The notes under the pieces: generated by a model
What the model saw: the letters and a program-made list of their open reading frames with translations, nothing else
Told to the model about the DNA's origin: nothing
Databases searched by the model: none
From: Marsupella aquatica
Taxonomy: Eukaryota; Plantae; Marchantiophyta
DNA: 64,000 nt
Reading direction: 5' to 3'
Assembly: GCA_973895155.1 (NCBI GenBank)
Contig: OZ316892.1
Span: forward strand, 62,001-126,000
Made by a program: the position numbers and the translations under genes
Part shown: positions 9,617 to 47,000 of the stretch, piece after piece
Numbering within the stretch: position 1 is the stretch's first letter
Layout of the letters: each line of letters opens with the position of its first letter

Positions 9617-12600
9617 TTAATCCTTTAAATCTTTTGTTTGAAGGTTTCGCCACTTGTCTTTCAGATCAATCTGTGTCAAAGTCAATAAAACATGATAGAT
9701 GAGCATGCAATTTGTCTTGTGTGCAAGGGTAAATACAGTAATACAAAAAGCAGGATATAACCATAGAAGACTTACTTCAGACCGGTCAATGAAGTGTGCA
9801 CCCTCGGCAGCAAGAATTCAACTCCACTTGCCTGGTCCAAACCTGAAATTAACCTTGGCTTAGAAAACCTCTTGTTCTTAGAGAAAAACACCAATTAATA
9901 CCAGCTAGGTAAGATATTACGTCAATGCATTTTGATTGATAAGTCATAGGTTCACTACTTGCCTACGGACTGCCTGTTTGAGACAATTTGTTTCCTCTTT
10001 AGACCACCTTTTAGTTGCCCTACGAACACGTATTAGACCATTGGGGCCTTCTTTCATGACTGCCCGGGTGATCAATTTGGAATTTTGTATTCCAATACAA
10101 TCTTGATGCAGCCTCAACCTCTTAGATGACGGGCTGGACGTATCCTCCTTCCCTGTGCCCTGCAAAGACATCCAATTTGTAATACTCCAGCAAGGATTGC
10201 AAACATTACAAAATACAGTACATCTTCCATACTGTACAAGATAGATGTTGTTGTCACCAATGATTAAAAACAAGAAGTTTCCTGCAGACCACCTCACCTT
10301 GGCACTCGAAGTTGCTAGATTGCCCTCCTCTGCTTTGTCTTTGGATTGGAATGGGGTGATTAGGGACCGAGAAGGAGGATTTAGCAAATCTATAATTCGT
10401 TTTCTCCCTAAGTTCTTCCCCATATCACAAATGCCTTTGTAATTCTCACTCTGTGGGGCTGGAAGCTCAACTAATCTCTGTTCTTCCGGATGAATTAGGT
10501 GTTGGACTTCATTTGATGATTGTTGCATTTTGCTAGTAGTAATTCCTCTGTTGAGCATATTAACCTCTGTGCTCACCTCTGTCACAAAAAAAACACCACA
10601 TTAGAGACTTCAATTCTCCATCAACAGCACATACAAAGACCTAGGAGTCTGAAACTACTCTATACACTATCAATCTGAACTAATCAATGCTAGTTCTAGT
10701 GCAATTTTGGTCAAACTGTAAGACTACATATGAGTTGAACTATGACATTGGTGAGCACTACATACCATACACTGGTTGGGAGGATGCCTGCTTTGGCAAC
10801 AATACAGGCGCCATGATCTGCTGGTTGGCCACCTCCAAAGGAGCTCCTTCATTCTCATCTATCAAATTCTCTTTACCTGTTCCAATCTCCACCCGCCTTT
10901 TTCTATAGTGATTCAATTTAGACTGCAAATACAACCATCCAATTAACGGAAATGATATTTCTCCACCACAATATGTATATTCACAATGACTTGCAGCAAA
11001 CAACAAATCAGTCCCACCTTTTACCAAATCTGATAGCTAGTGAGAGAAGACAAGGCCCAAACATTGTTAAAACAATGCATCTGTCTCCTAGCCTGTGAGT
11101 GCGGGACAAAACCAATGGAAAAATCCCAAAATTTTTGTGCACCACTCCATCGAGCGGTGCAAATTAAACCAACTATTTAATAAGACATTTAAGAAAACAA
11201 TCCTTTGGAGGAGGAGGGGAAGGGAGAGAATCATGAGCTAAGTTACCCAAGGTTGATCCAAATAAATACCTGAAGCTCAACTCGGACTTCCTCGGCAACA
11301 CTTTCATACTTGTCTTTCAAAGTATCCACATCCCTACGAACTGCGGCCAAGGTGGTCACCATCATTTCATTCCTTTGTAGGAGTAGCTCCAACTTGACAC
11401 CTATTGTGTTGTTTGCCTCTACTTGCATCCTCAAGTTGGTCAGTATTGTTTCGTTCCTCTCTGTCTGTAACTCCAAGGTGGTTGTCATCTTCTCATTCCA
11501 GTCTCTCTGGCGCTCTTTCTCTATTTTCAACTCACCTACAACCTCCATCAAGCACAGGCATGATGTACAACAAGATCTGACTGTTTTTGAAGCTTCTGAA
11601 ATGCTCAAGGGGAATACATTCTTTAGTGTGAATATGTCAGAGTGCTCCAGCAACTCCGTACCAGTTGTTGTCAACTCGATACCAAATTTTGTCTTCAATT
11701 TTCCCTGTTCTCTATCCTCTGTTCCAGGCGTTGCTTCCGCTTCGCCCAATGTCTTCCCTGATATTTCATGTTCTTTACCCCCCGACAGAGGTTTTGTCTC
11801 TTGAAGACTCAATGTCTTCATGGACGTTGCATGATCTTCATGGATTATCCCAACCTTTGTCACCATCTCATTGTCACAAGCTCGATTGAACAAAGAACCA
11901 TCTTGGTGTCCGTTCACAAAAGAACCATCTTGCTAACCTTGCGGCTCTGCTCCACTAGTTGAGAATAGCCCGAGAAGTCCTCCACTGCTACATGGATCAC
12001 CCTCATGCACACTAGAAACAACAGTTCCTTTGGCATGTCCTGACATTGCATCATCGTCGTTCATAATTTGCAGATGCATTGTGAGATGTTTTTGTCCTGT
12101 GCAGTTCTCCTCCATCCCGTGGTTTTCCACTCCATGATGCTCCACACCCACTTGAGTAGATGTTTTCCAATGGAATACTTGTGGCCTTGGCAAAGACACA
12201 ATTGAAGGGGACTTCTCACTCAACAGAATTTGCAGATGGGATCCAAAATTGTAAGTGCAAGTCATGTTACCTTCGGAGATTTGTTTCCGGGCTCTGCAGA
12301 GGAGGTCGATCAGTCTCCCGCCAAGATATTCTCCCCAATTCTTCCTACTACTTGTTTCTTCAACTTGCTTTATCTAGCACAAAGACACATCGGCCCTGCT
12401 CCCCTTAAAGTGAAGAGCCCCCAATTGAAACTCTAGCCTCTCTCTGATTAGGGAATCTTTGCAATATTGCAATGAGTAAGAACCATTGCTGTTCCTTTTA
12501 ATCCCTGCGAATGACCTTGGATTATATCGAACTGCTTTTTGCTCAAATGGCTCCCCTGACCCTTGCAACTTGAATGTCTTCTTGATAGAATCCAAACTCA

Positions 12601-12832
12601 AGTCTATTCTTCCCCCACAAACCCATGTTTCAGATTGTTCACTGTCAAAGTTCCGGATGAAATCTATCATGTCAGACTTAGAATGACTCTTAGTGTCCCA
12701 ACGAACTCCCAAAACAAAATCTGCAAGCCCATTGTGCTGAAGATATTCTGAATGTCGCGCTTGACACAATGTCGTCACCACAAGTGGTGGGATAAAATAG
12801 AATGTTGGCATCGCCATAGGCTTGGAAGACAT
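9617..12832 (-). pseudogene. Multi-exon chimeric gene: transposon-type N-terminal domain + coiled coil + C-terminal TRF-like (telobox) Myb/SANT domain; carries in-frame stops
   Basis: ORFs 12374..12832, 11933..12265 and 11243..11917 are in one frame, separated by single TAG codons. The last exons splice to give KRWSKEETNCLKQAVR|RFGPGKWS*ILAAEGAHFIDRSE|IDLKDKWRNLQ (exons ..9963, 9842-9776, 9670-9617). LKDKWRN is the telobox signature. There is a TGA at 9818-9820. Confidence 0.75.
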
Positions 12833-12999: not shown

Positions 13000-13470
13000 T
13001 AGTGTCAATAACACCAAGTAATTAACATTCATCACCAAGAATGCTAAAATGCATTTGAGTCAGGATATTCGGGTGCTATGGTGATTGGCGCGAATGAAAT
13101 CCGCCACTTCCCCGGGAAAATTCACAATGTCTATGCACACATGAACCCACTGTCCCTACTTGTCAACCTTGGGTTCAACTAGAAAGAATTGTAGGGAACT
13201 AGATCCAGAGGCACATAGACATGTACAGTAATAAATCTGGTGTACAGTGTCAATAACACCAAGTAATTAACATCCATTGCTCAAAATGCTAAAATGCATT
13301 TGAGTCCAGATATCCGGTTACTATGGTGATAGGCACAAATGAAATCCACCACTTCGAGGAAGATCCACAAAGTCTATGCACGCAGGAACCCATGTACTGT
13401 CCCTACCCATCAACCTTGGTTCAACTAAAAACAATTGTAGGGGAACTAGATCTAGAGACACGTAGCTATG
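13000..13470. repeat. Diverged tandem duplication of ~245 bp
   Basis: 'agtgtcaataacaccaagtaattaacat...aatgctaaaatgcatttgagtc...tgaaatcc.ccacttc...tctatgcac...gaactagatc' occurs at ~13001 and ~13246. Confidence 0.75.
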
Positions 13471-15094
13471 TTTTGCAATAAATCTCGTGTGATTCAATCC
13501 GCACAATTATGTTTAACTATTCAATCTGTACAATTATGTTTAACTACAGTATAATATTCACGCTTATTCTATGATCCAAGCCGTCACCAAAGATTTGCTC
13601 TAGAGGGATAATAATGTGGATTCCTATGAATCACCTAACAAGAAGCGGGCACTAACTAAGTACAAGTGTCCCTAATTAAGGCTTCCATGCTTGAATTGGT
13701 CTTAGCCAATAGGAAGCAAGACCAAATTAACAATACTTTTTGTGTCCTCATGAATACATATATTCGAAGCTCTTAATCTACCACCAATGCTCTCTCCCCT
13801 TGCACCAGCCTAGGTACTTACATTCTTGAGGAGACCCATCCAGTGTGTCTAGAATGTTATACACAAGCCCAGGGAGAAGGAATTTTTTGCCCATTCCCTT
13901 TCTTTCAGTACACCTCTGTATGACATAAATTCCCATTGCGACATTTTCCTTTCTAGCATAGAGTGGGAGCCACACAAGGAGCCATGGCTCCACCCTTTCC
14001 CATTCTTTCAGTGTGCCTTTGGTGTAGAGCAGGAGCCAAATATTGGAACTGTGTAATCCTGCACACCTCTAAGCTTGAACTCAGGCAGGCTAATTTCATA
14101 GTGTGTCGGATTGGGATATGACAAAAAGCTAAAATCTCAGCCCACAAGATGCAGGTAATTAAGATTCCTAGTTAGAGAACCCCTCCCTAACCCTAGTACT
14201 TCCGGAATGACATACAAACAGGCATACAAAGGCCCAAAGGAAAATGAATTTTTTGCCTTTCCCAATCTTTCAGTTCTTTTAGTGCACCTTTAGCGTAGAG
14301 CAATCCAAAAGGATGAATAGGGCGTGTCAAAGTGTTACAGTCCAAAAAAATAAATCAAAGTGTTATGGGATTTGTATTTTGGTAGCCCATAGTGATTTTG
14401 TCTTGACTGTAATAGTGTTTTATGACCTGAGCAATAATTGAGTTACATCTATGCAGCTTTAACACTCCCTAATGGAATCTTGGAACTATGTAATCATGCA
14501 CCTCAGAGCTTGAACTTAGGTGGGCTAACTTCATGGTATGTACCTTTAGTATAAGGCAAACAAATAAAATTCCAGCAGACAGGATCATCCTAATTCACCA
14601 TGTACAAATATTGAGGCGAGACCAAGGAAAGAACTGTACACTCCTTGGGACAAATCAATAGTAGATTTATGAAGGTGAGTACCTTAACATCAAAATTCCC
14701 CCTTTCTTCCCACCTAGTACATGTAAAATATTCATAAATCTAATGATAAAAATTACAACTTACAACTGCATTTCGGTACTCAGATCTGAAATGGTTGGTG
14801 TACTATTTGACCGGAATTATAATTTTTACTGAATTAGAATTAAAATCTTGAAAAAATTTATGTGGATTTGTTTGCTACAGTGTGGGAAGATCTAAAAAAA
14901 TTGACACCATAAAATTGAAGTTTACACTTTATTGGATTCTTTATTATGAAATATTCTTGAACTTTTTGTTAGAAAAGTTCTTAAACTAAAGTCCTCAAGG
15001 TTTTGAAGGACACTGTTTTTGAATGGCTATCAAAGATGTCACCTTTTGGATGTGGTTACAATTATCCCTATTTTCATTGCTCCCCGTGTGAATG

Positions 15095-15520
15095 AGGGTA
15101 CTCTTATCTCCTGAGGGTACCCTTGTGCTTGAGGGTACTCTTATCAGTGAGGGTACTCTTATCAGCGAGGGTACTCTTATCAATGGGTACGCTTATCAAT
15201 AATGGTACTTTGATCAATAAGGGTACCCTTATCAATGAGGATACTCTTATCTCCTGAGGGTACCCTTGCGTATGAGGGTACTCTTATCAATGAGGGTACT
15301 CTTATATCAGCAAGAGTACTCTTATCAATGAGGATACTCTTATATCAGCAAGAGTACTCTTATCAATTAATGGGTACCCTAAACCCTAAACCCTAAATCA
15401 ACAATGGTACTTTGATAATGAGGGTACCCTTATCAGTGAGGGTATTCTTATCTCCTAAGGGTACCCTTGTGTTGGGCCTTGTGCACGAGGGTACTCTTAT
15501 TAATGAGGGTAATTTTATTA
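15095..15520. repeat. Minisatellite, ~18-bp core GAGGGTACTCTTATCAAT with variants
   Basis: Many consecutive 'gagggtactcttatc' / 'gggtacccttatc' units. Confidence 0.9.
15377..15397 (+). repeat. Interstitial plant telomeric repeat (CCCTAAA)3
   Basis: The sequence reads ccctaaa ccctaaa ccctaaa. It is absent from the matching position of the second direct repeat. Confidence 0.85.
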
Positions 15521-15968
15521 GTCATAGCAAGCAACAAAGCAGGCAGGGAACCCCATGAAGGCGCCCCGCACCGGCAGAAGGACTCCGAACATACTGAAAA
15601 GACCCTAAACCTCACTAGACCAACATTTTGGGTATTGCATGGACAAATACTAGCCAAAGTACATGCCTAAATTTACCTGCTCTGTATTAGTTCCCTAAAC
15701 CAGGGGTGATTTTTTTCATCAAATCCATACATTGTATCCTAGTTTTTTTCACACATGATGTAAACCTACATAATGTGAAAGTGGGAGAGAAGACTTATGA
15801 TTTGATACAATCTTCATTTAACTATAGTACAATATTCACTAATCATCAGTATATATGGTAAGCTCCAATTCCTCCATATAGTATGTAGACAAAAATTGAA
15901 GCAATCGATGAAATAATTAACAATTTCATTACACTTGATATTAATTACAGTGCTTCCTTACTTCTTCC

Positions 15969-18900
15969 TCACCAGTACTCAGGATATTTTGTTTTCACAA
16001 TAGCCGCAGCAAACAAAACAAAGTTATTCACTACTTTCCCTGTACCTATCTGCATGAACCAAGTAGCAAGTTCTTCATCACTTTTCTCTCGAATTTCCGG
16101 AAATTCCTTGAACAATTCTGTTTGTATCCGAGAAACCCTCCAGCCTTGCCACACAAAATGTCGAAGACGCTCGCCTGTTCTATCATTGCACTGATCACCA
16201 TATGGTCCTTTATGAATACACATTCCAGTGACAACTACAGTATGTTGAAAGTGACACTTAAAACAAGTCCATGCATTTTGAGGGAATGTGTTCTTGCAGG
16301 TCCGGGCCTGGTGAGATCCTAGACATCTAAAACACAATGACCGCAATATAGGACAGTTGACAGCATTGTGTACTTCTTGCTCCCTTGATTCAGGACACTG
16401 ACAAATTAAGCATTGACTTCCATCACCCGCAAAAGTTCTGATGATACGAAGATCCCTTTTATCACTCTCAAAAGATCGGCTGTGTGCCATAGCCCTTAGC
16501 CTTGCAACCACAGGCTCTGCTTCATGTACCCCTTGTATAATTGGGGTCATCGGCAAGGTGTTTCCTTGTCGTCTTGGCATGGGAGTGGCTGGGGGTTGCG
16601 TAGGAGTTTCATATGTTGACTCATCCGAACCCCCTCTTCCTGGAATTCCCATTGAAGATGATGCTACCTCATGTGGTGGAATTGAGGCTGTTCTACAAGG
16701 AATGTCTTGTGTGAACACCTCAAAGTCGACTATGTCCACACCTGGGCTGCACATCACAGATGCTTGGGAACACAAGTCACACAAACTAGAGAATGGAATA
16801 AGATGACATACTTGAGGTTTTCCATCGACCTGGTCATGGAGCCCAAACCGACGACATGATGTCTTGTTCTCTATCCATTTGTGTGAAGCCGCTGTGGTTG
16901 AATCAATGCGTTTGGCCATCTTGCGATAAGCAAGGTTGGTCACCACATAACTCATCGCCGGGAGCCCATCACGTCCACCTCGTCCAGATTCTTGGTGGAA
17001 GTGTTCCAGAGACCTGAAACTACCACGATGAATGACAAGCTTAACCCATTTATAATTGTATCCACTACTAATCACTCCGGTGGCCACCATGATCTTACAA
17101 GCACCTGACGTCCAAGAACTCAATGAAGCCCTCTTCACCGCTATGTCCAGATGCGCATGCACATACACACATGACATTTCTTTCCCTTGGAGGATTCTTG
17201 TAGTTGATTCCACCTCCTCGCGGGTTAGACAAAATACTAGGGCCCTCTCTTCTGGCAAAGAATATGCTCTCCAATCACGCAGAAGACTCACTATTTCTTG
17301 ATCCATCATGTTATGGCCAACCTCAACAACGGCATACCTGATGTTGGGTCTCACAGTAGGACAACGAATCCACACCATCTCTGTAGCTAACATCCGCTCA
17401 ATATCAACTTGATTCTTGGGTGCTAGGGATGCAGTTAACCCTATGATTTGGCAATTAATTTCCATGAGGCCAACCAACTTTTTCATTGACGGTCGAAAGT
17501 CAGATAACAGGAGGTGCACCTCGTCGTAGACAATGGAATGCAAGGAACCACTGCATTTCAACTGCTTTGCCAAGATAATGAATAGTTTGGATTCTGCAGC
17601 AATCTCCACAGCCACAAAAATGATTGAAGGAGGTCTTGCCACTTCGACTGCACCATCCTTATACACAACACAACTAATATTTGCTTGTTTGCATTCCTCT
17701 ACGTGGCCCTCTACTAGGATAGTGAGTGGAACGATCACAATCACCGTCCTATTCTGTCCCATGGTGGAAGGTGCCATGAACACCAATGATTTTCCAGACC
17801 CAGTGGGTAGTATGGCAACAAAGTCCACCACATTATCTATGGATAGAGAAACTGCTGTTGCTTGTTCCGACAATTTCCACTGTTGATGACCAAGCCTTCT
17901 TAAGGCTTGACAAGCTCCAGCAGTCCTATTGAGACAAACTTGTAGCAGGGGATCACTTTCTCCACTTGCCAATAATGTCTGATGGATGTTTGAGTGGAAA
18001 ACTGTAAACCGCCTCCTTTTGGGAATTTGCCTCACCTCATATTCAACACCTCCAACGGGTCCCAAAAAGTCAAAAGGTGCAGTCGACATTACCTCGGGCC
18101 TCTGTGACCCACTGAGGCCAACCAACTTGTGCCACAATCGTGACACCAATACACACCCTCTTAAAATATGTCCATCCATGCCTCTAGGATCCTTTGTACT
18201 ACGAGCATAGTGATGGCCGACCGTAGCTGTTTCATGACCACCTGCTACATCCACAAGGTCTTCTTGTAAATGGGCCTTACAAGCTCGTATATTCTCACTC
18301 CAATGTGCTGCCACATGCCAGTACTTTGCAATCCCAAATGGAATGCCACAGTGCTTTTGGAAAGCATCTAATACACTGGCAGAAAGGTCTGCTCCCGTCA
18401 GCCTCTTGTCCATGGCCACAAACCAACAATCCAGGTACATTGCTGCAACTTCCGGACCCCACAAAATATTCGCCACGAAAGATTGTACTGGGCGAACTAG
18501 ACATAACAATTTCACAAATAGGTGGCTTTGATTGTCAGGAATGAACCGAGCAGTGAGGTTTATAGGTTTCCCAGCATTTGCACATTTGTGGTAGGATTGA
18601 TAAACCATCAGCGTATCAGATAACCAAATGAATGCTCTATCCCCAGTGGCAGTGTTGCGAATCAATAGGCTCGAGTATTCTTCCCCTCTTGCAGGTAATC
18701 CAGAACAGAAATGCAGAAGTAGGTTCAATAGCCTCTGTAGCTTGGAACATGCAACCATCCACCTGTGGAGTGCAGGCATGTTCCAAATAACTCCATTTAC
18801 ATTGTCCACTCGTAGGATGAAATGTGCCATCATCATAGTATTACTGAACATGTGGTTCAATAGATCCTTTCCATGTTGTTGGAACTCTGGATTTCGGGCG

Positions 18901-27723: not shown

Positions 27724-30700
27724 CTATCGTCTCGGCCTTCCTACTGCCTGTTGCCTAGACAACCTGAGTCGCTCCTCTTTCAGTACTTCCTGCAATATTG
27801 CGTTATCCTTTTTTCCGCTACTCAAACTTCCGTGTACGCATTCATCAATCAGTGTCCTCTTTCTCTGTTGTACATGCCACAATGTCTCCTCAATAGTATT
27901 CCTCATTAGGAAATGTGTAACAAACACTTCTTTTGTCTGCCCTAGACGATGAGTTCTGTCCACTGCTTGATCTTCTGCTGTTGGATTCCACCATATATCT
28001 GTAAAGAGTACATGATTGGCAGCCGTGATATTTAATCCCGTATTGGCAGCCTTTAATGACAGTAGGGCGACTTGTATCTGAATCAATCCAGTGTAGTGAA
28101 ATGCTTAGTGAGTGACCGATGTACAATTTCTCAAAAACATGCACCAAAACAACCTATATGGGGTGCTTTATGCATACCTGGTGAGATTCGGCAAAGTCTC
28201 TCAGATTTTGGTCACGCTTCTCCAAACTCATGCTTCCGTCCACCCTTGTGAACTGGATGTTTGCACTTTCAAGAGTTCCTTGTAACAAGTCAATTAAGCC
28301 GGTCCATTGAGAAAACACAATGGTCTTATCGTCACTTCCAGACTCTCGCAGCTCGTTCAAGTAAGACATGACACCGTCAATTTTGGGTGATGGCCCAGAA
28401 GTATGAAAACCGAGAATTTCCAAGTCCTCCTCTGCCAATTCAGTGCCAGACGACGTACATATATCACATACTCTGTACACCGTACTCCATGAAATTTGCT
28501 GCTTACAGTGTGGTGCTCCGCATATTATGTCCTCTTCCAGCGGATCAAAATAACAAGCTGAACTGGAACAGTAATAGTGACCACAGATGGAAATCATGGG
28601 GTCATCAAAAAGCTCACCTTGCAAATATTACAAAAATGGATTTCAAAGTTAGTGTGCAATGTCAAATGTTTCACCAATCGCCACCGGTTGAACAACACTC
28701 CCACGGGGTACTGGATTTACAAATAGGATTTACTATGTGCGAAAAATCACCTGGCACTTGTTACAAGTCACCCCTTCTGGAGCATCCAACAACTTGTTTA
28801 CCAATTCGCCTGAACGGACTCCATCGGGTTGGATCTTGGGAGTATTCACACTATCTTCTTTTTCATTGTGAAAGACAAGGTCACGATGCCCACAGTGGCG
28901 TCTCATTCTCAGCATCAACGACAGCAATTTAGCTTTCTCTTTCTTATTTCCCTTCTGTGAAGCCCACAAATCGACCCGGTTGAGTAATTGTACAAAACAA
29001 CAGGGCAACCACGGTATCTGTGCACAATTGAAGAATGACAAAGTACACCCACATAGGGTGGGCCAAACTTTGGACATACCGAGTCTTCCGCTGCACTCCT
29101 TGCCTCTAATTTCTTATACACTATGGCATCGCCTTCAACTAAAAAGTCGAGATGAGCTACTCTTACATGCTTCTTAGGTAGATTCAGGATACCTGCAAAC
29201 AAAACATGTCCAGCTATAAGATTGCATACAAACATACAACACATCGAAATCCATATGAAATTCAACCAATTCCAAATAATGGAAAAGTCCAATTCCAACA
29301 CATGTGAACATTGTAGTTGTAGTTGTCTTACTCTTATCTCTTCTCAATGTAATGGCCCTCAGCTCCTTGTGTAGTATTGCGTGTCCAGCTTTCCTACTTT
29401 TTGCAATATGCTGCCTCAAAATCTTGAACCGGTCTATGTCACAGTAAGGGGGGTATCCAAGAAATTTGAAATAACTGTATGCCTCCCAAGTAGAATTTGA
29501 CACAGGAGTTCCACTTACACACCATCTGCTTCTTGCATGTAGGTTGCAAGCAGCTAATGCTCTGCCATTCCTATGGTTTGAGATTGCCTGACACTCGTCT
29601 AGAATCACCCTGTACCATTGTACCTGCTCCAGGCAAGGAGGCAATGGATCCTTCGTTTTCTTGGGTGTTGGCTCCACAGGAATTTTTTGACTTAATTTCC
29701 CTTTCCTTCTCAGTGTAGGTGGGTCCGTAGTGGAATGTTGGGCGAGAGTGCCATAAGTGGTAATTATAACATCGTATAAGGCCAACTGCTTTGGATCCAT
29801 ACATCTGTCCGACCCGTGAAATATTAACACCTTTACATTTGCCCTTGCAGTAGTTTTAGTGGTAATCTCACGTTTCCATTGAGTCATAACACTTCCAGGA
29901 CAAACGATAAGGGTCTTGCTTCTGGGTGGTCGATTGGTGACTAAGAGTGTAATCAGTTGAATTGTCTTCCCCATTCCCTACCAACAAATACAGTTAGTTC
30001 ATTTCATGCAATGGGGAAGAAAATTCCAAGTTCACACCACAAAAACACATGATGACCCTGAAGTCAATGCACAGCCCACTCAACATTAGGAAATGATGTG
30101 AGCTTTAGGGTTTTACCTGGTCATCTGCCAAAATACCCCCAAAACATTGGGAATCACCACTCTCCCTTGACAACATCCAGAATAGACCTTTCCGTTGATG
30201 TTGATAAACTGTCACATTTTGCATAAGCCCATCTGGTGGGCTTGCTTCTCCTGTGAAGTCCCTATCATCAATGTATTCCTGCAATGGTCACGGAATAACA
30301 GTCAGCCTTCTTAACCGGCTCTACTCATCCAAACTGAGTATTTGGACAAGACGCTGCGACATGGTTAGTTTACTCACTCGTTCCTCTGCTTGCGAAAAAG
30401 GTTGGACTCGGATTCGAGGAAAGTCCATCTCTGAATCTGAATCTGAACAGGAATTTGTGATTGTACGACGCACGGAGGTAGCGTCAATGTCAACATGATC
30501 CAAGCTATCCCCTTCATTATCAAAAGACCACAACAGTCATCGCCTTTTTGGGGGGTCCTCCAAATTAATGCGAGTCAATTGCGAGACCACAGACAGAGAA
30601 CAACTTGCAATCTCATCCCTCTGTACGCGATTTTTACATGGCACTGGCACTATTGTCATTTCATTGTTGGAGGTTGAACCAAGTAATGGACGTCCATGAG

Positions 30701-33700
30701 CTTGCCTCTTTGGTTCCGCAATGAACGGTATAACTGGTTCAGCGTTCGACACTTGCTTTCTCTTCAAATTCCTCATTGTACATTCCAACTCTTCAACCTT
30801 TGCAAAAGCTATGTGCAATTGGTCATCCTTGAATTTTAATTCTACTTTCTGAGTCAAAACTATTTGTTGCAAGTCTACATTCTCGCCCAATCTACAATGC
30901 ACCTGTTCAAGCTCTGCCATTGTACGCTCTAAGTCCAATTTCAAAGACTCCACGTTAGTGCGCTGAGTATTGCGTTCGGCAGTGCACTTTGCTACCTCAT
31001 TTCTCAGTTCCCCCATGCACATTTTGTTCTCCTTCAAAGCTTTGTGAGCAATTGCGTATTCCGCCTTCAGCCTTGTCTATTTTACAAGTGCTCGTTGAAG
31101 GTCTTCCAACTTGCTCTGTGACTCTAATCTGAACAACTGAAGTTGTGTGCTCACATCATCTCGTTGTTTAGTGCGCCTTGCAAGTTCACTTTCCAATTCT
31201 TCCATGCGCATTTGGATATCCTTCAAAGCACATTCAGCACCTAAACATGATTCCATGCACACTGCCTGCTCTACAACCTTCCGTTGAACATCTTCAAACT
31301 TGCTTTCTAACGACAATTTCAACAACTCAAGTTCATTGATCGCGGCATCTCGTCCTGCAACACATCTTTCAAGGTCAGCACTCAATTCTGCCATGCGCTT
31401 ACTGGAGTCCTCCTTCCAACCTTGTTCAGCAGCTTGGTAATTGTCATTGCGCTTTGTCACCTGCACAAGCTTTTCTTCAAGGTCTTTCAACTTCCATTGT
31501 GACTGCAATTTGAACTCTTCAAATTTGCTGGTGACCGCATCTCGTTCTGTAGTGCCCATTTGAAGTTCAGCACTCAATTTTGCCATGCGTGATTGGTCCT
31601 CCTTCCAACCTTGTTTAGCAGCTTGGTATTTGTCATTGCGCTTTGTCACCTGCACAAGCTTTTCTTCAAGGTCTTTCAACTTCCATTGTGACTGCAATTT
31701 GAACTCTTCAAATTTGCTGGTGACCGCATCTCGTTCTGCAGTGCCCATTTGAAGTTCAACACTCAATTCTGCCATGCGTGATTGGTCCTCCTTCCAACCT
31801 TGTTCAGCAACTTGGTATTCGTCATTGCGCTTTGTCACCTGCACAAGCTTTTCTTCAAGGTCTTTCAACCTGCATTGTGACTGCAATTTGAACTCTTCAA
31901 ATTTGTTGGTGATTGCATCTCGTCCTGTAGTGCCCATTTGAAGTTCAACACTCAATTCTGCCATGCGTGATTGGTCCTTCTTCCAACCTTGTTCAGCAGC
32001 TTGGTATTCGTCATTGCGCTTTGTCACCTGCACAAGATTTTCTTCAAGGTCTTTCAACCTGCATTGTGACTGCAATTTGAACTCTTCAAATTTGCTAGTG
32101 ACCGCATCTTGTTCCGCAGTGCCCATTTGAAGTTCAGCACTCAATTTTGTCATGCGCGATTGGTCCTCCTTCCAACCTTGTTCAGCAGCTTGGTATTCGT
32201 CATTGCGCTTTGTCACCTGCACAAGATTTTCTTCAAGGTCTTTCAACGTGCATTGTGACTGCAATTTGAACTCTTCAAATTTGTTGGTGATTGCATCTCG
32301 TCCTGTAGTGCCCATTTGAAGTTCAACACTCAATTCTGCCATGCGTGATTGGTCCTTCTTCCAACCTTGTTCAGCAGGTTGGTATTCGTCATTGCACATT
32401 GTCACCTGCATAAGCTTTTCTTCAAGGTCTTTCAACCTGGACTGTGACTGCAATTTGAACTCTTCAAATTCGCTAGTGACCGCATCTCGTTCCGCAGTGC
32501 CCATTTGAAGTTCAGCACTCAATTTTGTCATGCACGATTGGTCCTCCTTCCAACCTTGTTCAGTAGCTTGGTATTCGTCATTGCGCTTTGTCACCTGCAC
32601 AAGATTTTCTTCAAGGTCTTTCAACCTGCATTGTGACTGCAATTTGAACTCTTCAAATTTGTTGGTGATCGCATCTCGTCCTGTAGTGCCCATTTGAAGT
32701 TCAACACTCAATTCTGCCATGCGTGATTGGTCCTTCTTCCAACCTTGTTCAGCAGCTTGGTATTCGTCATTGCGCATTGTCACCTGCATAAGCTTTTCTT
32801 CAAGGTCTTTCAACCTGGACTGTGACTGCAATTTGAACTCTTCAAATTCGCTAGTGACCGCATCTCGTTCCGCAGTGCCCATTTGAAGTTTAGCACTCAA
32901 TTTTGTCATGCGCGATTGGTCCTCCTTCCAACCTTGTTCAGCAGCTTGGTATTCGTCATTGCGCTTTGTCACCTGCACAAGATTTTCTTCAAGGTCTTTC
33001 AACCTGCATTGTGACTGCAATTTGAACTCTTCAAATTTGTTGGTGATTGCATCTCGTCCTGTAGTGCCCATTTGAAGTTCAACACTCAATTTTGCCATGC
33101 GTGATTGGTCCTTCTTCCAACCTTGTTCAGTAGCTTGGTATTCGTCATTGCGCATTGTCACCCGCACAAGCTTTTCTTCAAGGTCTTCCAACCTGCATTG
33201 TGATTGCAATTTGAACACCTCAAATTCTCTGGTGACCGCATCTCGTCCTGCATTGCATATTTCTTGTTCAGCACTCAAATTTGCCATGCACGATTGGTTC
33301 TCATTCCAACCTTCTCCAGCATCTTCATATTCGTCATTTCGCATTGTCTGTGCCGTCAACTCCCCTTCAAGGTCATCAATCCTGCCTTCTAACTTTGATT
33401 CCGATGACTGAAGTTTACATTGAATAGGTTGAGGTTGGGTTTCCCTTCTTGTAGTACCCTCGTTGCCAACATTTGGCCCCAATATAAGGCTTTCCCATGA
33501 AAATCCCCAATGTAGCAGCAACTATGTAATAGCAGTCCCACAATAAGCGGGGAACGCCTTTGACTCACGAATATTCCTCATACCCTGAAGGTGTTTCTTG
33601 AATTTACTTATTTCCAAAGCCAATTCATCGTAAACTAAATCACTCCAATCTGGTAGCAATTTTGGCACAGGGCCTGCTAGTCTTTTTCCCTTGGGCAAAG

Positions 33701-34362
33701 TACCACACAAATACCAGTAGAAATAACTCAATTGTTTCGCTGATAACTGTGAAGGCTTCTCCTTACCCAGCAGAATTTCCTGCACCACTCTAATTGCCCC
33801 ATACCATCTATCATACGGAGCTCTCAAAAGCTTTAAACTATAGGGATTCCCTCTTATTCGTGGACGAACAAACAAATCATTGAATTCAGGACAATGCATT
33901 CTCTGCCTATACTTGGCGAATGTACCAGATGGCAGCTTGAATGCCGCACGTAACACATCTTGTGTGATTTTCAATGAACATCCTCGGAATTCACTGGATT
34001 TTGATGCATAATCAAATCCCAACACAAACTCCTTCACCCCACATACGGCTGTTATGTTGTAATCAATCCCAAAAGTTTGTTGCAGACCAAGGTTGAAAAT
34101 CATTGACGATCGAGTTGGATCACCTCCCACCAAACTGCGAATTCGTTCCGGTGTGCAGGAATGCCACAACGTTCCAGTGCCGCCTGTTTCAATTCCAACC
34201 CACGGATTGTCAAAATGTTCCACATATCATCACTAAACCACAATGCAAAATTCAACTATATGCAATGATGACCAACTATTAAGTATTGTAATCCAAACCT
34301 TCCTTTTCCACCTCCTTGTAGGGCTGGACCTCGTCGTAAGGTGACTCTGCCTTGTCCTCCAT
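27724..34362 (-). pseudogene. Chimeric gene: transposon-type N-terminal domain + 63-aa coiled-coil repeats + SNF2 helicase with RING finger (RAD5/16 group, CHR27/CHR28-like); several in-frame stops
   Basis: ORFs 33522..34223, 31077..33521, 30537..31037 and 30321..30533 share one frame, separated by single stops. Spliced motif I is FGGILADDQ|GMGKT (donor after 30117, acceptor before 29977). Other motifs are ILDECQ, RWCVSGTPVSN, RING CNKC..CGHYYC..C..CGAPHC, KTIVFSQWT, and LKAANTGLNITAANHV..DIWWNPTAEDQAVDRTHRLGQ. A possible short first exon starts at ATG 34362. Confidence 0.85.
31380..33300 (-). repeat. Coding tandem repeat, 189-bp (63-aa) unit; ~9 near-identical copies plus diverged flanking copies
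   Basis: 'gactgcaatttgaactcttcaaatt' recurs every 189 bp (e.g. 31501, 31690). The protein unit is EEFKLQSQCRLKDLEE...LQMGT..RDA.T..F. Confidence 0.95.
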
Positions 34363-34768: not shown

Positions 34769-36737
34769 TGCATTACCCGAGCACACTGTGGCTGTGCGTT
34801 ATAGAATACCCCATCCCTCGTACCCCCAACCTTCAAAATACTGTAATTTGATACATACATACCCTTCGGTGCACATTGACATTGTTTTGCATTACCCCAG
34901 AACATGGTGGTTGTGGGTTTTGGAAAACCCCATCCCTCGTACCCCCCAACCTTCAAAATACTATAATTTGATAATACATGTACCCTTTGGAACACATTGG
35001 CACTTGCATTACCTCATGGTGGTTGTGCGTTTTGGAATACCCCATCCCTCGTACCTCAACCTTCAAAATACTGTAATTTGATACATACATACCCTTCAGA
35101 GCACATTGGCACTTGCATTACCCCAGCACATGGTGGCTGTGCGTTTTGGAATACCCCATCCATCGTACCCCCCAACCTTCAATACTGTAATTTGATACAT
35201 ACGTACCCTTCGGTGCACATTTACATTTGCATTACCCTAGCACATGGTGGCTGTGCATTTTGGAATACCCCATCCCTCATACCCCTCAACCTTCAAAATA
35301 TTGTAATCTGATATATACATACCCCTTTGGAGCACATTGGCACTTGCATTACCCCAACACATGGTGGCTGTGAGTTTTGGAATACCCCATCCGTCGTACC
35401 CCCAACCTTTATAATACTGTAATTTGATAATACATGTACCCTTTGGAACACATTGGCACTTGCATAACCTCATGGTGGTTGTGCGTTTTGGAATACCCCA
35501 TCCCTCGTACCTCAACCTTCAAAATACTGTAATTTGATACATACATACCCTTCAGAGCACATTGGCACTTGCATTACCCGAGCACTTGGTGACTATGCGT
35601 TTTGGAATACCCCATCCCTCGTACCTCAACCTTCAAAATACTGTAATTTGATATATACATACCCTTCGGAGCACATTGGCACTTGCATTACCCCAGGACA
35701 TGGTGGCTGTGCATTTTGGAATACCCCATCCCTCATACCCCTCAACCTTCAAAATACTGTAATTTGATATATACATGTACCCTTTGGAACACATTGGCAC
35801 TTGCATTACCTCATGGTGGTTGTGCGTTTTGGAATACCCCATCCCTCATACCTCAACCTTCAAAATACTGTAATTTGATACATACATACCCTTCAGAGCA
35901 CATTGGCACTTGCATTACCCGAGCACTTGGTGACTATGCGTTTTGGAATACCCCATCCCTCATACCCCCCAACCTTCAAAATACTGTAATTTGATATATA
36001 CATACCCTTCGGAGCACATTGGCACTTGCATTACCCCAGCACATGGTGGCTGTGCGTTTTGGAATACCCCATCCCTCGTACCCCCAACCTTCAATACTGT
36101 AATTTGATACATACGTACCCTTCGATGCACATTTACATTTGCATTACCCCAGCACATGGTGGCTGTGCATTTTGGAATACCCCATCCCTCATACCCCTCA
36201 ACCTTCAAAATACTGTAATCTGATATATACATACCCTTTGGAGCACATTGGCACTTGCATTACCCCAGCACATGGTGGCTGTGAGTTTTGGAATACTCCA
36301 TCCGTCGTACCCCCCAACCTTCAAAATACTGTAATTTGATATATAGATACCCTTTGGAGCACATTGGCACTTGCATTACCCCAGCACATGGTGGCTATGC
36401 ATTTTGGAATACCCCATCCGTCGTACCACCCAACCTTCAAAATACTGTAATTTGAAACATACATATCCATCCGAGCACATGGACATTTGCATTACCCCAA
36501 CACATGGTGGCTGTGCATTTTGGAATACCCCATCCCTCATACCCCTCAACCTTCAAAATACTGTAATTTGATATATACATACCCTTCGGAGCACATTGGC
36601 ACTTGTATTACCCCACCACATGGTGGCTGTGAGTTTTGGAATACCCCATCCGTCGTACCCCCCAACCTTCAAAATATTGTAATTTGATACAAACATACCC
36701 TTTGGAGCACATTGACATTTGCATTACCCCAGCACAT
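34769..36737. repeat. Satellite array, ~112-116-bp unit, ~17 copies
   Basis: Unit: gcattaccccagcacatggtggctgtgcgttttggaataccccatccctcgtacccccaaccttcaaaatactgtaatttgatacatacatacccttcggagcacattggcactt. Confidence 0.95.
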
Positions 36738-37051
36738 AATTATATACAAGCCATCCGGATAGTGCACTGTGATGCCCGTTGAGCTCAAATTGCCATCGGA
36801 AGCTATGGGACAGATTGCTTGACAGAATTCCACAATTACTTGTTATACTGTATAGTTGATATATTCTTGTGTTCATTTTTCCTGTCCATTTGGAAATTGC
36901 ACAAATTAACAAAAGTATCCATAAAGGTCTGTCATCGTAGAAAGTGATGACATCAAGTCAATTTTGAGCACTCCCTCAGAGGTGTAATTGTTCAGCATTT
37001 GTAAATACCTTGCACTATATATCATGACTGTACACATTGAATTAGTTCTAC

Positions 37052-38590
37052 TCAGCCATTTCCCACGTCCAAATTTGAATGGTGACACTTTTGATACTAA
37101 CGGAGTTTGAAGGTTTCAACATGAATGCTATTGCTGCAAAAATGTTTAACCGGAAATGTTATGGGAGTTTACGGTTTAACCAGAAATGTTATGGGAGCCT
37201 ATGAGCGACAAGCACATTAAGTAACCAGATTGAAGACGGGCAATAGGAATTCTAGAAGCCCAATTATACTTCCCGACCATAATACCATCCCAACCATGGC
37301 GCAGAAGGGAATTTGAAGGCGGCAAGCACATTAAGGAACCAAATTGAAGGCGGACAGGAATTCTAGAAGGCCAATGCTTCCCAACTATAATACCAGCCCA
37401 ACCATGGCGTTGAAGGGAATTTGAAGAAAGTGATGACGTCAAGTCAATTTTAAGCACTCCCTCGGAGGTGTAATTGTTCAGCATTTGTAAATACCTCGCA
37501 CTATATATCACGACTGTACACATTGAATTAGTTCTAATCAGCCATTTCCCACATCCAAAATTGAATGGTGACACTTTTGATACTAACGGAGATTAAAGGT
37601 TTCGACATGAATGCTATTGCTGCAAAAATGTTTAACCGAAAATGTTATGGGAGTCGACTACGGTTTAACCAGAAATGTTATGGGAGCTAATCAGCCATTT
37701 CCCACGTCCAAAATTGAATGGTGACACTTTTGATACTAACAGAGATTAAAGGTTTCGACATGAATGCTATTGCTGCAAAAATATTTAACCGGAAATGTTA
37801 TGGGAGTCGACTACGGTTTAACCAGAAATGTTATGGGAGCTAATCAGCCATTTCCCACGTCCAAAATTGAATGGTGACACTTTTGACACTAACGTAGTTT
37901 AAAGGTTTCGACAGGAATGCTATTGCTGCAAAAATGTTTAACCAGAAATGTTATGGGAGTCGACTATAGTTTAACCGGAAATGTTATGGGAGCTAATCAG
38001 CCATTTCCCACGTCCAAATTGAATGGTGACACTTTTGATACTAACAGAGATTAAAGGTTTCGACAGGAATGCTATTGCTGCAAAAATGTTTAACCAGAAA
38101 TGTTATGGGAGTCGACTATAGTTTAACCGGAAATGTTATGGGAGCTAATCAGCCATTTCCCACGTCCAAATTGAATGGTGACACTTTTGATACTAACGGA
38201 GATTAAAGGTTTCAACATGAATGCTATTGCTGCAAAAATGTTTAACCGGAAATGTTATGGGAGTCTACGGTTTAATCGGAAATGTTATGGGAGTCTACAG
38301 TTTAACCGGAAAATTATGGGAGTCTACGGTTTAACCGGAAAATTATGTTATGGGAGCCTACGAGCGACAAGCACATTAAAGAACCAGATTGCAGACGGGC
38401 AATAGGAATTCTAGAAGACCAAATGAATACTTTCCGACCATAATACCAGCCCAACCATGGCACAAAAGGGAATTTGAAGGTGAAGAGCACATTAAGGAAC
38501 CAGATTGAAGGTGGGCGGCAGGAATTCTAGAAAGCCAATCTTTTCCGACTAAAATACCACCCCAACCATAGTGCAGAAGGGAAGGGTCTG
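37052..38590. repeat. Composite tandem array: ~153-bp units plus ~120-bp units; dispersed copies at ~41650 and ~42190-42480
   Basis: 'cagccatttcccacgtccaaaattgaatggtgacacttttgatactaac...gtttaaccggaaatgttatgggag' starts at ~37052, 37539, 37692, 37846, 37998 and 38149. 'gcacattaaggaaccagattgaag...ggaattctagaag' occurs at ~37211-37430 and 38370-38580. Confidence 0.9.
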
Positions 38591-40548: not shown

Positions 40549-43029
40549 AGAGATTTCCAGCAAAAACTTGTAAGAAAATTGCAAGACGTGAGGTGCTCAA
40601 CAGTTTTTTGTGTCTTGGCCAGTCTTGGGAGGCCATAGGCATTCGTCTATTTGCAGGACATTTGTTAGCTTTTTTGGGTTTGCATAGATTACGGTACGGT
40701 GGCTATAGAGAGCAAATTGCCCGCCATTGCTTGCGGATATGAAGGAAATGCTAAGTCGAGCAGCAATTCCAACCAGAAGAGAGAAGAGACGGGTACAAAG
40801 GAAGATAGCAGGAGAGCTAGAACTATAATGCGACAGAAGTGGCAGTAAGTTAATTTGAAGGCTGCTTTCACGCTCTGTCAAAAAATATGAAAAAGTTTTG
40901 TCTCGGTATGGACATCCAACGACAACTGCTCCAAAGATCTCCTCTCAAGGCACTTGACAAACATGCCGTAGTGAATGACTACAAAGCAAACTTTGACCCG
41001 TGTAACCAATCAGACTTCAAGCAGTTGGAATCTATCTACATCAAATGGGGCGACCCGGTGATCTATGAATTTATCAAGTTCATTGAGGCGCCGGTGGGTA
41101 AATTTACTTGGGCTAAGCTAGCCTCCGGTATTGAGCATCATCACATTTCAGCTCTGGTGGAATCCACACTCAAGATTTTCCCAACGGCTTAGTGACTCCG
41201 AGGTGTCTACTATCCTCTTCGACTATGTGGGCAGGAATCTGCGGTCAGTGTTGTTTTTGCTTCTCCTACAGGCACTTACCGGCCGCGTGTTCTACATCAC
41301 GGCCCCATTATTTTGACAACCTGGTAACACAATTCAACATTCGTGAAGCAGGAACTCAACATCCCACACATCAAAAGGAACGGCCGGATCACGAGGTCCT
41401 ACAAGTGTGCCAAGGGGTGGAGTATAAGGCAAGGCAGAAGGCAGCTTTTTGGCAGGCGTAGGATGAGGAGCAGCAACAACGGGAGGAAGCTGAATTACAA
41501 CACCTGGCATTACGGGCCCAAGAGTTTGAGGCGGATCGGGCATAGACCCAGGTGTGGATTAGCATTGAGTCTAGAGAGTAAATAATATATCACAACTGTA
41601 CAGAGTGAATTAGTTCTAATCAGGAAGCCTGGTCTTCTTTAATTTGTATCTCATTTCCCACGTCCAAAATTGAATGGTGACACATTTGATGCTAACGGAG
41701 TTTAAAGGTTTCAACATGAAAGCTATGGGAGTCTACGGTTTAACCAGAAATGTTATGGGAGCCTCCACTTTAACCAGAAATGTTGTGGGAGTCCATATGC
41801 TGAAACTTGGAGACATACCATGCATCGCATGTGAGACACAGCCTTTACATAAGAGTCTTGTATGGTGGGTTGGACAGTGAAGGCAATTTGGGTCCTAGGA
41901 GTGTCTGAATGGAGTTGCGACACAGATGGAGGTGAGTAGCAAGGCATGAATACCGCAACCATGGATGTTGTACAGAAGAGAAGCTCCATCACTGCACACT
42001 TGGCCTGAAACCACGCCACGCCACTGCCACCAGTAAGCATCAAAAACGCAACCATTCGGAAACGCCTTCGCTCGAAGACTGCATCCGACAATGACTCTAA
42101 TCCATCACTTGTTGCAATTATTGACGACGTCAGTACGCCATCCAAGCGACACAAGATTCAAGATGCAGATTGAAGGGAATTTGGAGGTGGCGAGCACAGT
42201 CAAGGACCAGATTGAAGGCCAACAACAAGAATTCTCGAAGGCCAATGCTTCCCGACCAAAATACCAACCCAACAATAATGCAGAAGGGAATTTGAAGGTG
42301 ACGAGCACATTAAAGAACCAGATTGAAGGCTGGTACAGGAATTCTAGAAGCATTGACCAAGCTTTGTTTCCTTTGTATTTCTCACGAACCTAATTGAATG
42401 GTGACACTTTTGATGCTAACGGAGTCCAATGGTTTCAACATGAATGTTATAGCTGCAAAAGACTTTTATTGGAAATGTTATTGGAGTGTGGGACTACAAG
42501 TGAGTCACAATGAATGCTAGTGGTGTATGAACACTTAAAAAATAATGTTATGGGAGCCTACGGCAACCACCCATAAGTCACCCTAATCAATACTAGCGGA
42601 GTTTAAAGGTTTTGATAATAATGTTGTGGGAGTCCAAATGTTGAAACGTTGAGACCGTGCACTGCATGTAGGAGACCATGCACCGCATTCCCTAAATACC
42701 CTAAAATGGCCTGAAGACCGGCCTCATTGCACGCGCTGTGCAGGGAAGATATATACAGTCTACTTCTAATCTTCTTCCGTAACAGCCTTTCTCGGGCAGC
42801 CTTTTGTAGTAGTATTCAACCAACGAGCGCCTGCACGAGAAACTGAGAAAGTGCTGTGGATGAAGTACTGTAGTTGATTAGATGCTTCTGAGAGTTTGCA
42901 ATAATTGTCCAAACTTGTCCAAACCCACTTCACCACAATGAAAACAATGTAGATAAGCGTGAAATCTTGGCAGCTCTCTAGACAATCTCATGTCCCTGCT
43001 GTGCAACTGGGAGGGTAGGGTACGTTTAC

Positions 43030-43300: not shown

Positions 43301-44063
43301 TGATTTGAAGTGAATTATAAATTCTTCTCCCCACACTTCAGGGACTTTGCAATCTGTTCCAACGCAAAGGACCCTGGTGAGCTCAGCTCAACTCAGTGGG
43401 GCCGTAGCATAAGTAGAAGGTCCTTCATTGATCTTCTAGCTCCCAACACTTCAGGCACTTTGCATGAGTCTCGTCGTAGTAGTACGTACCCGTAAATTGT
43501 GGCGCTTGATTCAATTGTTGAGTGAGCTTTACTTCTCCTTCTCAACAAGAGGGGTTGCACACCAACTTTGCCACAACACTTGCTACCACCCATCAACAAG
43601 CTAGTTGATTTTGAGCACAACCTTTACATGGTATGCTTCTTAGTTGGTATTTTTGAAATGTCTTTTAATTGGAAGTTCACACCCATTGATTCAGTCCTTA
43701 GATTGATTTTTGGTAGGGTGTAGCTCATATAGAAATAGTGATACAATGATTGTTTCTTTCACGTTCCTAACCTCACAGAGTTTACTTTAGTCTCTTTTGG
43801 ATACCCTGTTACAATCTACAAAGTAGTTATTTGCTTTTAGGTAAACATTTGTCTTGCATGTCATTTGTACTTTGCTAGGTTGGAAGTCTAAATGCTAACA
43901 CTTTGGCAACAATAGGTTCCAGTTTCCTATGTTAAATGTGTACAGTCAGAAGGGAGCCAGAGTATATTCTTAAGGGCTTTTATTGTTCAAGGACTTACTG
44001 CAAGCAAGTGAAACTTGTTAGTTAAGTACAAGCTCATTTTGGCATTAATTTGATGTTTGTTTG

Positions 44064-47000
44064 TGTGACACGGGTAACGTGTCACTTGACCGAACCCAGG
44101 TCGTAGATTAGGACTTATACGGTCATTAGGACCGTAGCCATAGCATAGAATAGCACGTATAGCCGTCAAGTTGCCATTATGATTAGATTAGGAGTAGGTT
44201 AAGATAACCGAATAATTACGAGTTCAGGAAAGGGATTATTACGCATGACCGAGGTAAGGTGGCGGCAGCGGAGTAAAAATCAGTTAGAAGAATCACGCTT
44301 GGACCGAGATGCCGACTTCAGCTCGTTATCAATGACCAAACGGCCTGACCTTCTCACGCTCGGGCTAGTCCGGGCACCCCCATAAGAGAGGAGCCGATGG
44401 CACTGTGGGCCATTCGCTCACGTTTACCTTTTTGGAATTCACGGACGCTGCCATCCGCTCGCCTTTTTGATTGAATCTAGTCGACCTTTACGAGGAAATT
44501 ATCGAGGGAGAAGAGCGGAATGTGGCGAGATTTAGTCAGGACGAGCGAGGCCTCCGTGAAAAAGGACCAGCCAGGTGGGAACGTGGACGCAACGAACCGG
44601 ACTACGAGGTTAGTATGACCCTCACAACCTTGGGATTTTGGACCTTGTTTGGCGAGGTAGGTGCTAAGTTCTCCGAGACTTACTGGTACTCTTGCCCCGA
44701 GAAAGCCGCTTACGAACGAAGGTACGCAAAGCTGGTAACCAAGGTAGCACTGGTTAATTGCGAAAGGACAGCCATCACCAGGGATTCTAGCTATAATGAG
44801 CTGCGAGACTACATCACCGAACTATATCTCAGCGAGGAAGGGCTTAGATCGGTAGCAGAGGCGATTCTTGAGGTTCCAGCTAAGTTCTTTAAGCTGAAGG
44901 GCAACCAGCGGCTTACTCAAGCGGAGTTTGACAAGATTCCGGGGTACCTAGACCAGCAGATCGCAGCCGAAAAGCGCCAAGAAGACATCAGCAGACAACG
45001 GGAAGCGGCGCGTAATCTCACGTTCCTTGGGGAAAGCTCCAACGCCTTCAACTGGGATATGGCTACCCCAGCGCCTCAACCGATGACCACCGGAGTACCG
45101 CCGAACCAGTCCCAAGTCCGTCCAGTAATCAACGCGGAGTGTTCTTCGGGTTCCGAGCGAGCTAGTCTGCAACTCGAACAACATCCTCGTAAGTGGTCAA
45201 GGACTACGATGGCCCCCGAATCAACACGGACCGACGCCGTGCCTGCACCTGCCCCGGCAAACCCCCCGGCCAACCAGACCCGACGGCCCCCGGATAACCC
45301 GAAGTCCAACTTATTACAGGTAATCCGCTCCCCGAGGTAGTCTGGATCGCGATCAAGAAACTTGAACATGCGGACTATCTCAAGGAGCATCAGTTGGAGC
45401 GGTTCGCCCACTTACTATGGAGGCCGTGCACCGCTGGGCCGAAGGAGATTTGTGAGTTCATCTCCAATTTCGACACTGATGCGTCAACCACCAAGGTTTC
45501 GGGGCAGACCTTATCACTCACGGAGCATCGGTTAACGCAAATTTTCGGCCTACCAACCGGGCCGGTGCCGGTGGAAATCCGAATTCGGGATAAGGAGTAT
45601 ACGCCGCGGCACTTCAAACCCGAGGGTAAGACAGACAACGGATACAAGCAGGGGGCGTGCACCAACTTAACCTGTATGGAGCGGCTTAACTTCATACGGA
45701 CTACCCTACACATGATTGAGCCACGATCCGAGATTTCCCTCTGCACGATAGTGCAGGTGGAACAGTACAAACGATGAAACTGGGCCCAATTCTTCTACCG
45801 AAGATTCTCGGGGGAGCTGAAGCGGGCTCAGGGTGGTATGGCTATTGGAGGGAAGACTTACTTGGGGAGTCATATCGCCATTATCCTCGCCTGGTACAAG
45901 GCACGGCGGGAGGCCAGAGGAAAGAATACGGCCACCTCAGCCCCGGGTAATGTCACCCCCGCCCCAGAGGAGGCAACCCCGACTACGCGGACTACTGTCC
46001 CTCGGACAAACCCCGAGCCGGAAGCCCCGACTAATACTCCGCAACCGCCCCCTGTGGAAATTCCACCGCCTCCTTCCGTTGAGCCTCTGCTACCTGCAGT
46101 ACAACCACCCCCAATCCCTCCACCACCTGAAGAAACCTTCCCCTCCCCAGCGCTGACTACGGAGGAGCTCATTGCCCCTGCCGAGGAACCACCGGTACCC
46201 GAGAGGATGGAGGACTACCAAGTAGCCCCGGGGACCATGGCCTACGACCTGGTCCAGAAGTTTAGCCAGACTATGTCTGGGGAGTTGGCGACATACATCG
46301 GACAACAAGTCTCGGCGTACTTTCAGCCAGCCTTCTTCATGTTAGAGCACCAACCACGGATCGTCAGCCGCTTGGAAGAAGAACTCATGGCGAAGGGGAA
46401 TGAGATCGGGCGTCTCCAGATGCTGGTAGAGCACCTCGAGGAGGAGGCAATGACCCGCCGCAAGGATTTAGTCCGCACTGTCGAACAGAAGGACGGACTA
46501 ACCCAAGAGTTAAGCGGAGCGCAGGCCGAACTCAAGAAGCTGGACGACACCGTGCTTCAATTACGCTCAGAATCTTCGGCTCGGGTTACCAGCCTGACCG
46601 ACCTCAACAAACAATTCTTGCAGGCAGCACAGCAGGTGGCTAGTCTCTCCGCCGAACGAGATAAATTGCTAGCGCAGGACCAGGTCCATCGCGACGCCAT
46701 CGACCAGCTCAACTTGGAGGTGGCGCGGCTCCAGACTGAAGCCGACGAAGTTGCAAACAAGGCGAAGGAAGCATTACGGGACAACAAGGCTTTGCAGGAC
46801 CGCGTCACCCTGCTCGTCCTCCAGCGGGGAAAACCTGGGCCCACCTCTGATCAAGGCGGCTCGAGGTCTCGCCCCGACAAGGGGACCAGCCCTGGTCCAA
46901 CCACTGCACACACGTAAGGGGTAGTTAGCGAAGGGTAGAAGCAGGCGCCGCGCGAGGCGGTTAAGTCAGTGGCATCTTTTAGTTAGGCGTAACGACAGAA

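Follow-up and report, generated by a model that had tools for sequence, protein, structure and literature searches.

A predicted VANC21-like domain in LTR-type elements of the liverwort Marsupella aquatica and in two broken genes with a putative Myb and an SNF2-RING module

Four copies of one domain

The window analysed here is a stretch of 64,000 nucleotides from Marsupella aquatica (NCBI GenBank assembly GCA_973895155.1, contig OZ316892.1, positions 62,001 to 126,000 of the forward strand; positions below count from its first letter). Most of this 64-kb window is transposon-like, and it holds four copies (A, B, C and E) of one 190-residue domain: B lies in a high-copy unit with the ends of a long terminal repeat (LTR), E directly behind a gypsy-type integrase, and A and C in two broken genes, in which Myb and SNF2-RING modules, respectively, are predicted to follow it.

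3..539, minus strand: copy E, an extra open reading frame (ORF) directly behind the gypsy integrase, cut by the window edge
600..1871, minus strand: gypsy-type integrase remnant with H2C2, rve and a C-terminal part with stops
2633..6394, minus strand: ORF of 1245 amino acids (aa) with coiled coils, domain membership unsupported
12203..12790, minus strand: copy A, in-frame TAG at 12374-12376
33474..34130, minus strand: copy C, scored core 33918-34049, in-frame TAG at 33522-33524
45331..45900, plus strand: copy B, used for structure prediction, in-frame TGA at 45775-45777

The alignment of copies A and B spans 180 columns, 56 of them identical, and its score of 184 was reached by 0 of 1000 shuffles. 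As a query against 1.84 billion representatives, the A+B alignment gathered 60 relatives at E <= 0.001, and the window was then searched in six frames with a profile built from those 60 relatives alone. The scores of about 180 bits that A and B each obtain from this profile are circular, because their own alignment had gathered the relatives; C and E stood outside the original query and are therefore fair tests of the profile, scoring 13.3 bits (E = 1.3e-5; for C the score covers the first half of the domain only) and 4.1 bits (E = 0.008), against -0.9 for a reversed control. With hhalign, C (44.6, 90.8%) and E (36.7, 80.2%) exceeded the maxima of both 120 shuffles (22.5) and 52 windows from other real ORFs (18.3). 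At the level of sequence, these comparisons show that A, B, E and the first half of C are homologous. The sequence-only reading, for which the significance of profile alignments was the test, had placed the domain in three, perhaps four, proteins and had called the 1245-aa ORF weakly similar; four copies are indeed present, but the fourth is the ORF behind the integrase, whereas the 1245-aa ORF (14.6, 0.38%) stays under the shuffle maximum and is unsupported as a member, though its weak alignment keeps the same register. Its claim that the domain is common to retroelement-borne ORFs (B and E) and intron-bearing genes (A and C) is upheld by the profile and hhalign matches. A further candidate at 7.9-8.2 kb was dropped (1.8% over 15 columns).

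Copy E starts about 60 bases past the stretch read as the integrase C-terminus (600-1046, same strand) and about 500 bases behind the H2C2-rve ORF, with no reverse transcriptase in view. This is the position of the extra ORF in Athila-type elements, which is located behind the integrase (PMC7264820; PMC11728184).

When 30 of the representatives were looked up, an organism was named for nine, all of them the liverwort Calypogeia fissa. A rough heptad screen flagged 11 of the 23 relatives of at least 340 aa, one of these within the domain itself. The Pfam scan of the window took in 21 ORFs, with intergenic stretches covered via ORFs of at least 120 aa, plus 38.9-41.6 kb.

An LTR-like unit around copy B

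44064..47891, no strand: solo-LTR-like unit, high copy, 3828 bp, TG..CA ends, GTTTG target duplication, no terminal direct repeats
44471..45337, plus strand: opening portion of the B reading frame; it carries its own conserved N-terminal domain of about 140 aa, and the rest follows a frameshift near 45.33 kb
45901..46917, plus strand: proline-rich linker and coiled coil of the B protein (coiled coil about 46460-46830)

The 3828-bp unit starts with TGTGACAC, ends with GTGCGACA and is flanked on both sides by GTTTG; its TG..CA ends, 5-bp target duplication and lack of internal terminal repeats are those of a solo LTR. In run X2, whose contigs are long and clean, the depth across the unit is 5691-7415; the contig that covers the helicase gene has 107 and the non-repeat parts of genes A and C have 113-169, a contrast of 50-70 fold in depth, which is not equal to copy number. 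Contigs of runs X1, X2 and X3 match the left flank, the side that was compared, up to 44063 and then diverge in the manner of an empty site.

The B reading frame carries one frameshift and one stop in the window, and near 45.33 kb, where the frameshift lies, contigs of all four runs have a one-base length variant. The relative P0068 (906 aa) and others like it have a single ORF that runs from the N-terminal domain and the shared domain to the proline-rich linker and the coiled coil. The N-terminal domain (44640-45090, plus strand) belongs to no Pfam family and occurs in at least nine database proteins; besides P0068, its carriers include P0083, P0074, P0020, P0029 and P0039. The observed/expected CpG ratio is 0.90 in the B unit. 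The integrase, the 1245-aa ORF and genes A and C have values of 0.40-0.62, a PPR gene has 0.75, and the short stretch of E reaches 1.13; the high ratio of the B unit could be explained by its youth alone.

In the surroundings of the unit, a 155-bp sequence (47321-47473) recurs inverted and 78% alike at 51896-52047, and a related LTR-like sequence without the ORF lies at about 51-52.8 kb, where a search for ends was unsuccessful. Beside the unit is an AT-rich decayed gene (48402-49410, plus strand) with a weak match to Tet-like 2OG-Fe(II) oxygenases (E = 0.051) and an HxD..H pattern, which may represent a second anti-methylation gene.

Two broken genes with a putative Myb and an SNF2-RING module

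9617..12832, minus strand: gene A model, five exons (12832-11270, 10922-10766, 10578-9963, 9842-9776, 9670-9617)
9617..10012, minus strand: Myb domain of gene A, divided among three exons; its last residues are LKDKWRN, and a TGA lies at 9818-9820
27727..29977, minus strand: gene C exons that match SNF2 ATPase, RING and helicase C in the Pfam scan
30117..34226, minus strand: gene C first exon, a single frame of 1370 codons with five in-frame stops, running from the domain through a coiled-coil repeat to the SNF2 start
31345..33348, minus strand: coding tandem repeat of gene C, 189 bp x 10.6 copies, a 63-aa helical unit
34769..38583, no strand: tandem arrays of 116 bp (x17) and 153 bp (x5), non-coding, immediately upstream of gene C

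Gene A, modelled by hand from splice signals, comprises 818 codons with in-frame stops at codons 153, 300 and 787, and its four introns (three GT-AG, one GC-AG) are all phase-consistent; the predicted order of its product is domain, linker, coiled coil, linker and Myb. Read across the introns, the last module reaches 19.3 bits with the Pfam Myb model (E = 0.0012), short of the cut-off of 24.4, and its LKDKWRN would suit the telobox type (TRF-like/TRB). Searches of PDB sequences returned coiled-coil noise alone and nothing for the split Myb. In a tree of 36 rows of at least 150 aa, from which shorter matches were omitted, A belongs to a supported clade of six with P0001, P0003, P0004, P0005 and P0019, and P0001 and A both have a Cys-rich stretch ahead of the coiled coil. 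None of these relatives shows a Myb, and several appear to end at the position where exon 1 ends; a spliced partner would therefore stay hidden. Deeper variants of exon 1 in run X3, with frame-keeping indels of 12 and 3 bases, hint at other coding copies of A. Just upstream of the gene lies a 245-bp tandem duplication, 82% alike (13001-13490).

The first exon of gene C extends over 4.1 kb with zero frameshifts and reaches into the first SNF2 motif, matching positions 1-25 of the Pfam profile; there, inside motif I, a phase-0 intron of 139 bases connects it to the main SNF2 exon. The SNF2 ATPase (E = 3.7e-37) and helicase C (2.1e-11) match Pfam, as does, weakly, the RING (0.008); the ADDQ of motif I is presumably a mark of the FRG type. 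TRF-like/TRB Myb proteins and FRG-type SNF2-RING remodellers resemble A in the Myb with LKDKWRN and C in the SNF2-RING-helicase; unlike them, A and C have these modules behind a transposon domain and a coiled coil, in broken genes. CENP-B, neurotoxin and aegerolysin models of Pfam also matched the 63-aa repeat, but these scores add up over the repeat units and were dismissed. Of the arrays upstream of C, the 153-bp family (37057-38583) is seen again 4 kb off, at 41585-42676, the two arrays bracketing a decayed gene at 39-41.6 kb; no Pfam family was found on the plus strand of 38.9-41.6 kb.

TAG and TGA account for all eight in-frame stops of A and C, and a single transition separates each of them from a sense codon, the pattern that methylation-driven decay would give. 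That the two genes are dead chimeras, joined by chance through transposon capture and never selected as fusions, is a serious contender, with chances only somewhat below even: it agrees with the three stops in A and five in C, with the CpG depletion of both, with their transposon-rich surroundings and with the absence of Myb or SNF2 from all 74 relatives scanned with Pfam (60 + 14), whereas it accounts poorly for the single frame of C up to the phase-0 intron in SNF2 motif I, for the phase-consistent introns of A, for the supported clade of A with its shared Cys-rich stretch in P0001, and for the frame-keeping variants in X3. The opposite case, in which A and C are domesticated, MAIL3-like host genes of a bryophyte lineage and the copies in the window are pseudogenised duplicates, would suit their near single-copy depth in X2, their host-type introns and the known cases in which PMD is fused to a phosphatase, kinase or protease (PMC7156037), but we consider it unlikely, as the named liverwort relatives include no such fused protein and arrays and transposon relics lie on both sides.

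The sequence-only reading had proposed that a coiled coil and then a different module follow each copy and that the domain recruits host chromatin modules. The first part describes the Myb of A and the SNF2-RING of C, both in genes that carry stops; recruitment narrows to the two broken genes of this window, in a single genome, and none of the 74 relatives carries such a fusion. Word-based homologue searches (B alone; 1303-3720 aa; 609-2000 aa) returned no relatives, and since the 609-2000 aa search missed the members P0068, P0002 and P0013, these blanks are uninformative on fusions elsewhere; locus scans of viral and metagenome contigs likewise gave nothing. In the explanation we prefer, exon capture would have brought host modules, introns included, into one gene with the domain, making the product of gene A a two-handed DNA binder and that of gene C a targeted remodeller, and both genes would later have decayed through C-to-T changes.

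Predicted fold and known families

The predicted fold of copy B is that of the DNA-binding domain of VANC21 (PDB 9LNK, 9LNJ) over 173 of 190 residues, at 11% identity. A fold from the two-sequence alignment was useless (pLDDT 32.7). An accidental resemblance, with the family having a fold of its own, seems very improbable, because both structural aligners used choose the same plant transposon protein over the full domain length, far above the next row, and because sequence-based leads give DUF1985 and Transposase_32 (the latter being the Atlas lead for copy C). Neither PF10536 (PMD) nor PF09331 (DUF1985) had a match in the window ORFs or the 60 relatives (for PF09331, at E 0.01 in the relatives), and Transposase_32 (PF20167) matched two relatives weakly, at 16.9 bits (P0050) and 15.0 bits (P0067) against a gathering cut-off of 45. 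No PMD chain is among the structural matches listed, and a viral structure library gave no match for the domain at E 0.001. The earlier comparison with PMD and plant transposon proteins therefore survives in the predicted VANC21-like fold, while every Pfam cut-off is missed and PMD is reached via VANC only. The domain had also been called a scaffold; its predicted fold points to a DNA-binding domain instead.

Several known systems are similar in part. (i) VANC21 of VANDAL21 (DUF1985) is alike in predicted fold, in being a transposon accessory protein, in the coiled coil of the same chain and in the tandem arrays, here beside gene C; the bryophyte family differs in its low identity, in lacking a DUF1985 Pfam match and in sitting on LTR-type units rather than on a Mutator-like DNA transposon (no Mutator transposase is among the 21 window ORFs), and its DNA binding is only predicted. 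For VANC, a restriction to dicots and a probable capture from MAIN-like genes of the host have been described (PMC13547354). (ii) PMD (gypsy PMD-A; MAIN, MAIL1, MAIL3) reportedly has the VANC fold, the PMD of MAIL1 resembling the VANC domain (10.1101/2024.09.27.615353; PMC13547354; 10.1101/2024.04.02.587720), and occurs in gypsy elements and in genes, some of them host-fused; it differs in the absence of a Pfam match and in its partners, which are phosphatase, kinase and protease and not Myb or SNF2-RING. (iii) The Transposase_32/ATHILA (PF03078) extra ORFs are alike in the weak Pfam match of two relatives, the Atlas lead for C and the sense position of E behind the integrase, and unlike in that the best score is 16.9 bits against a cut-off of 45 and in the placement of B inside an LTR-like unit with an extra N-terminal domain. 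(iv) The antisense TRP28 ORFs (PF04195) of Retand are likewise accessory ORFs of gypsy elements, for which a DNA-binding domain is predicted beside SMC-like coiled coils, but no sequence link to them was found, and they are described from flowering plants only, between pol and the 3' LTR (PMC11963269).

In angiosperms, gypsy-borne PMDs, their capture by DNA transposons and fusions to host domains are known (PMC5418596; PMC7156037; PMC11963269); PMD has been described as angiosperm-only (PMC8616336), and it is called fully open whether gypsy or host came first as its source (PMC5418596). Our literature search, which left subscription journals largely outside, found no paper on such a bryophyte family or such fusions, and supplements may list non-angiosperm PMD-like proteins. 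What appears to be new here is a Pfam-free bryophyte family with a predicted VANC fold, its place inside an LTR-like unit, and its putative Myb and SNF2-RING partners.

Proposed function

We think it reasonably probable that the VANC21-like domain is that of a DNA-binding anti-silencing protein of bryophyte LTR retroelements and that, in two broken genes, it is apparently joined to a Myb and to an SNF2-RING helicase. The domain would bind a short motif within its own element, the coiled coil would oligomerise it, as modelled for VANC and the Athila domain (PMC13547354), and binding would shield the element from methylation or Polycomb silencing. VANC21 itself binds a 9-base motif amassed in the tandem repeats of its own element and causes methylation loss there (PMC5735166), and by analogy the bryophyte protein most likely binds and shields its own element. 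What makes the putative Myb fusion suggestive is that PMD-C proteins counter Polycomb at promoter motifs close to teloboxes bound by TRB (10.1101/2024.09.27.615353; PMC13547354; 10.1101/2024.04.02.587720).

The same fold might serve the element in another capacity (structural, RNA-binding or integration-targeting, as proposed for the extra ORFs of Athila and Retand) with no anti-silencing. Fold sharing by itself says nothing on function, and the function of those extra ORFs is described as unknown (PMC7264820; PMC11963269); moreover, the B unit has no motif array and no 8-mer is enriched in its non-coding part, which weighs against a bound motif within the element. We nevertheless regard another role as fairly unlikely, since the sole solved relative, VANC21, is DNA-bound, both studied branches (VANC and PMD-C) counter silencing at short motifs, and several basic positions of the family are conserved (K10, R86, K100, R118, R123, R132 and R165).

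A bryophyte retroelement family with the predicted VANC fold would move the origin of the fold to early land plants and favour a retroelement source. The domain is small, confidently modelled and borne by a young high-copy element, making retrotransposon anti-silencing testable in a tractable plant group. A bolder version, which we offer as speculation with a low chance of being right, is that a VANC-type sequence-specific anti-silencer lies inside the LTR itself, so that solo LTRs shield the family; that its fold predates flowering plants and is of gypsy origin; and that it was twice wired to host silencing machinery (a Polycomb-recruiting telomere-repeat Myb and an SNF2-RING remodeller) giving chimeric regulators that worked and whose decayed copies are those in the window.

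Other features of the window

The 1245-aa ORF is intact and has no Pfam family; it has an acidic tract and coiled coils, and its C-terminal half, some 550 aa long, is globular and unexplained. Another intact ORF, of 1659 codons (15969-20948, minus strand), combines a C2H2-like start, OrsD, an unlabelled middle that we take to look like a tyrosine recombinase, and a RecQ-type helicase. It lies between 1.2-kb direct repeats (14601-15793 and 22859-24099, about 85% alike) in which 18-bp arrays and TTTAGGG units occur, and together with them it resembles fungal telomere-linked helicase elements. Further along, 54827-56450 (plus strand) holds a zinc knuckle and what looks like a gag-protease remnant of another gypsy element, and 58538-61741 (plus strand) is occupied by an intact PPR-E-DYW gene for RNA editing, in which a 303-bp unit occurs five times in nearly identical form.

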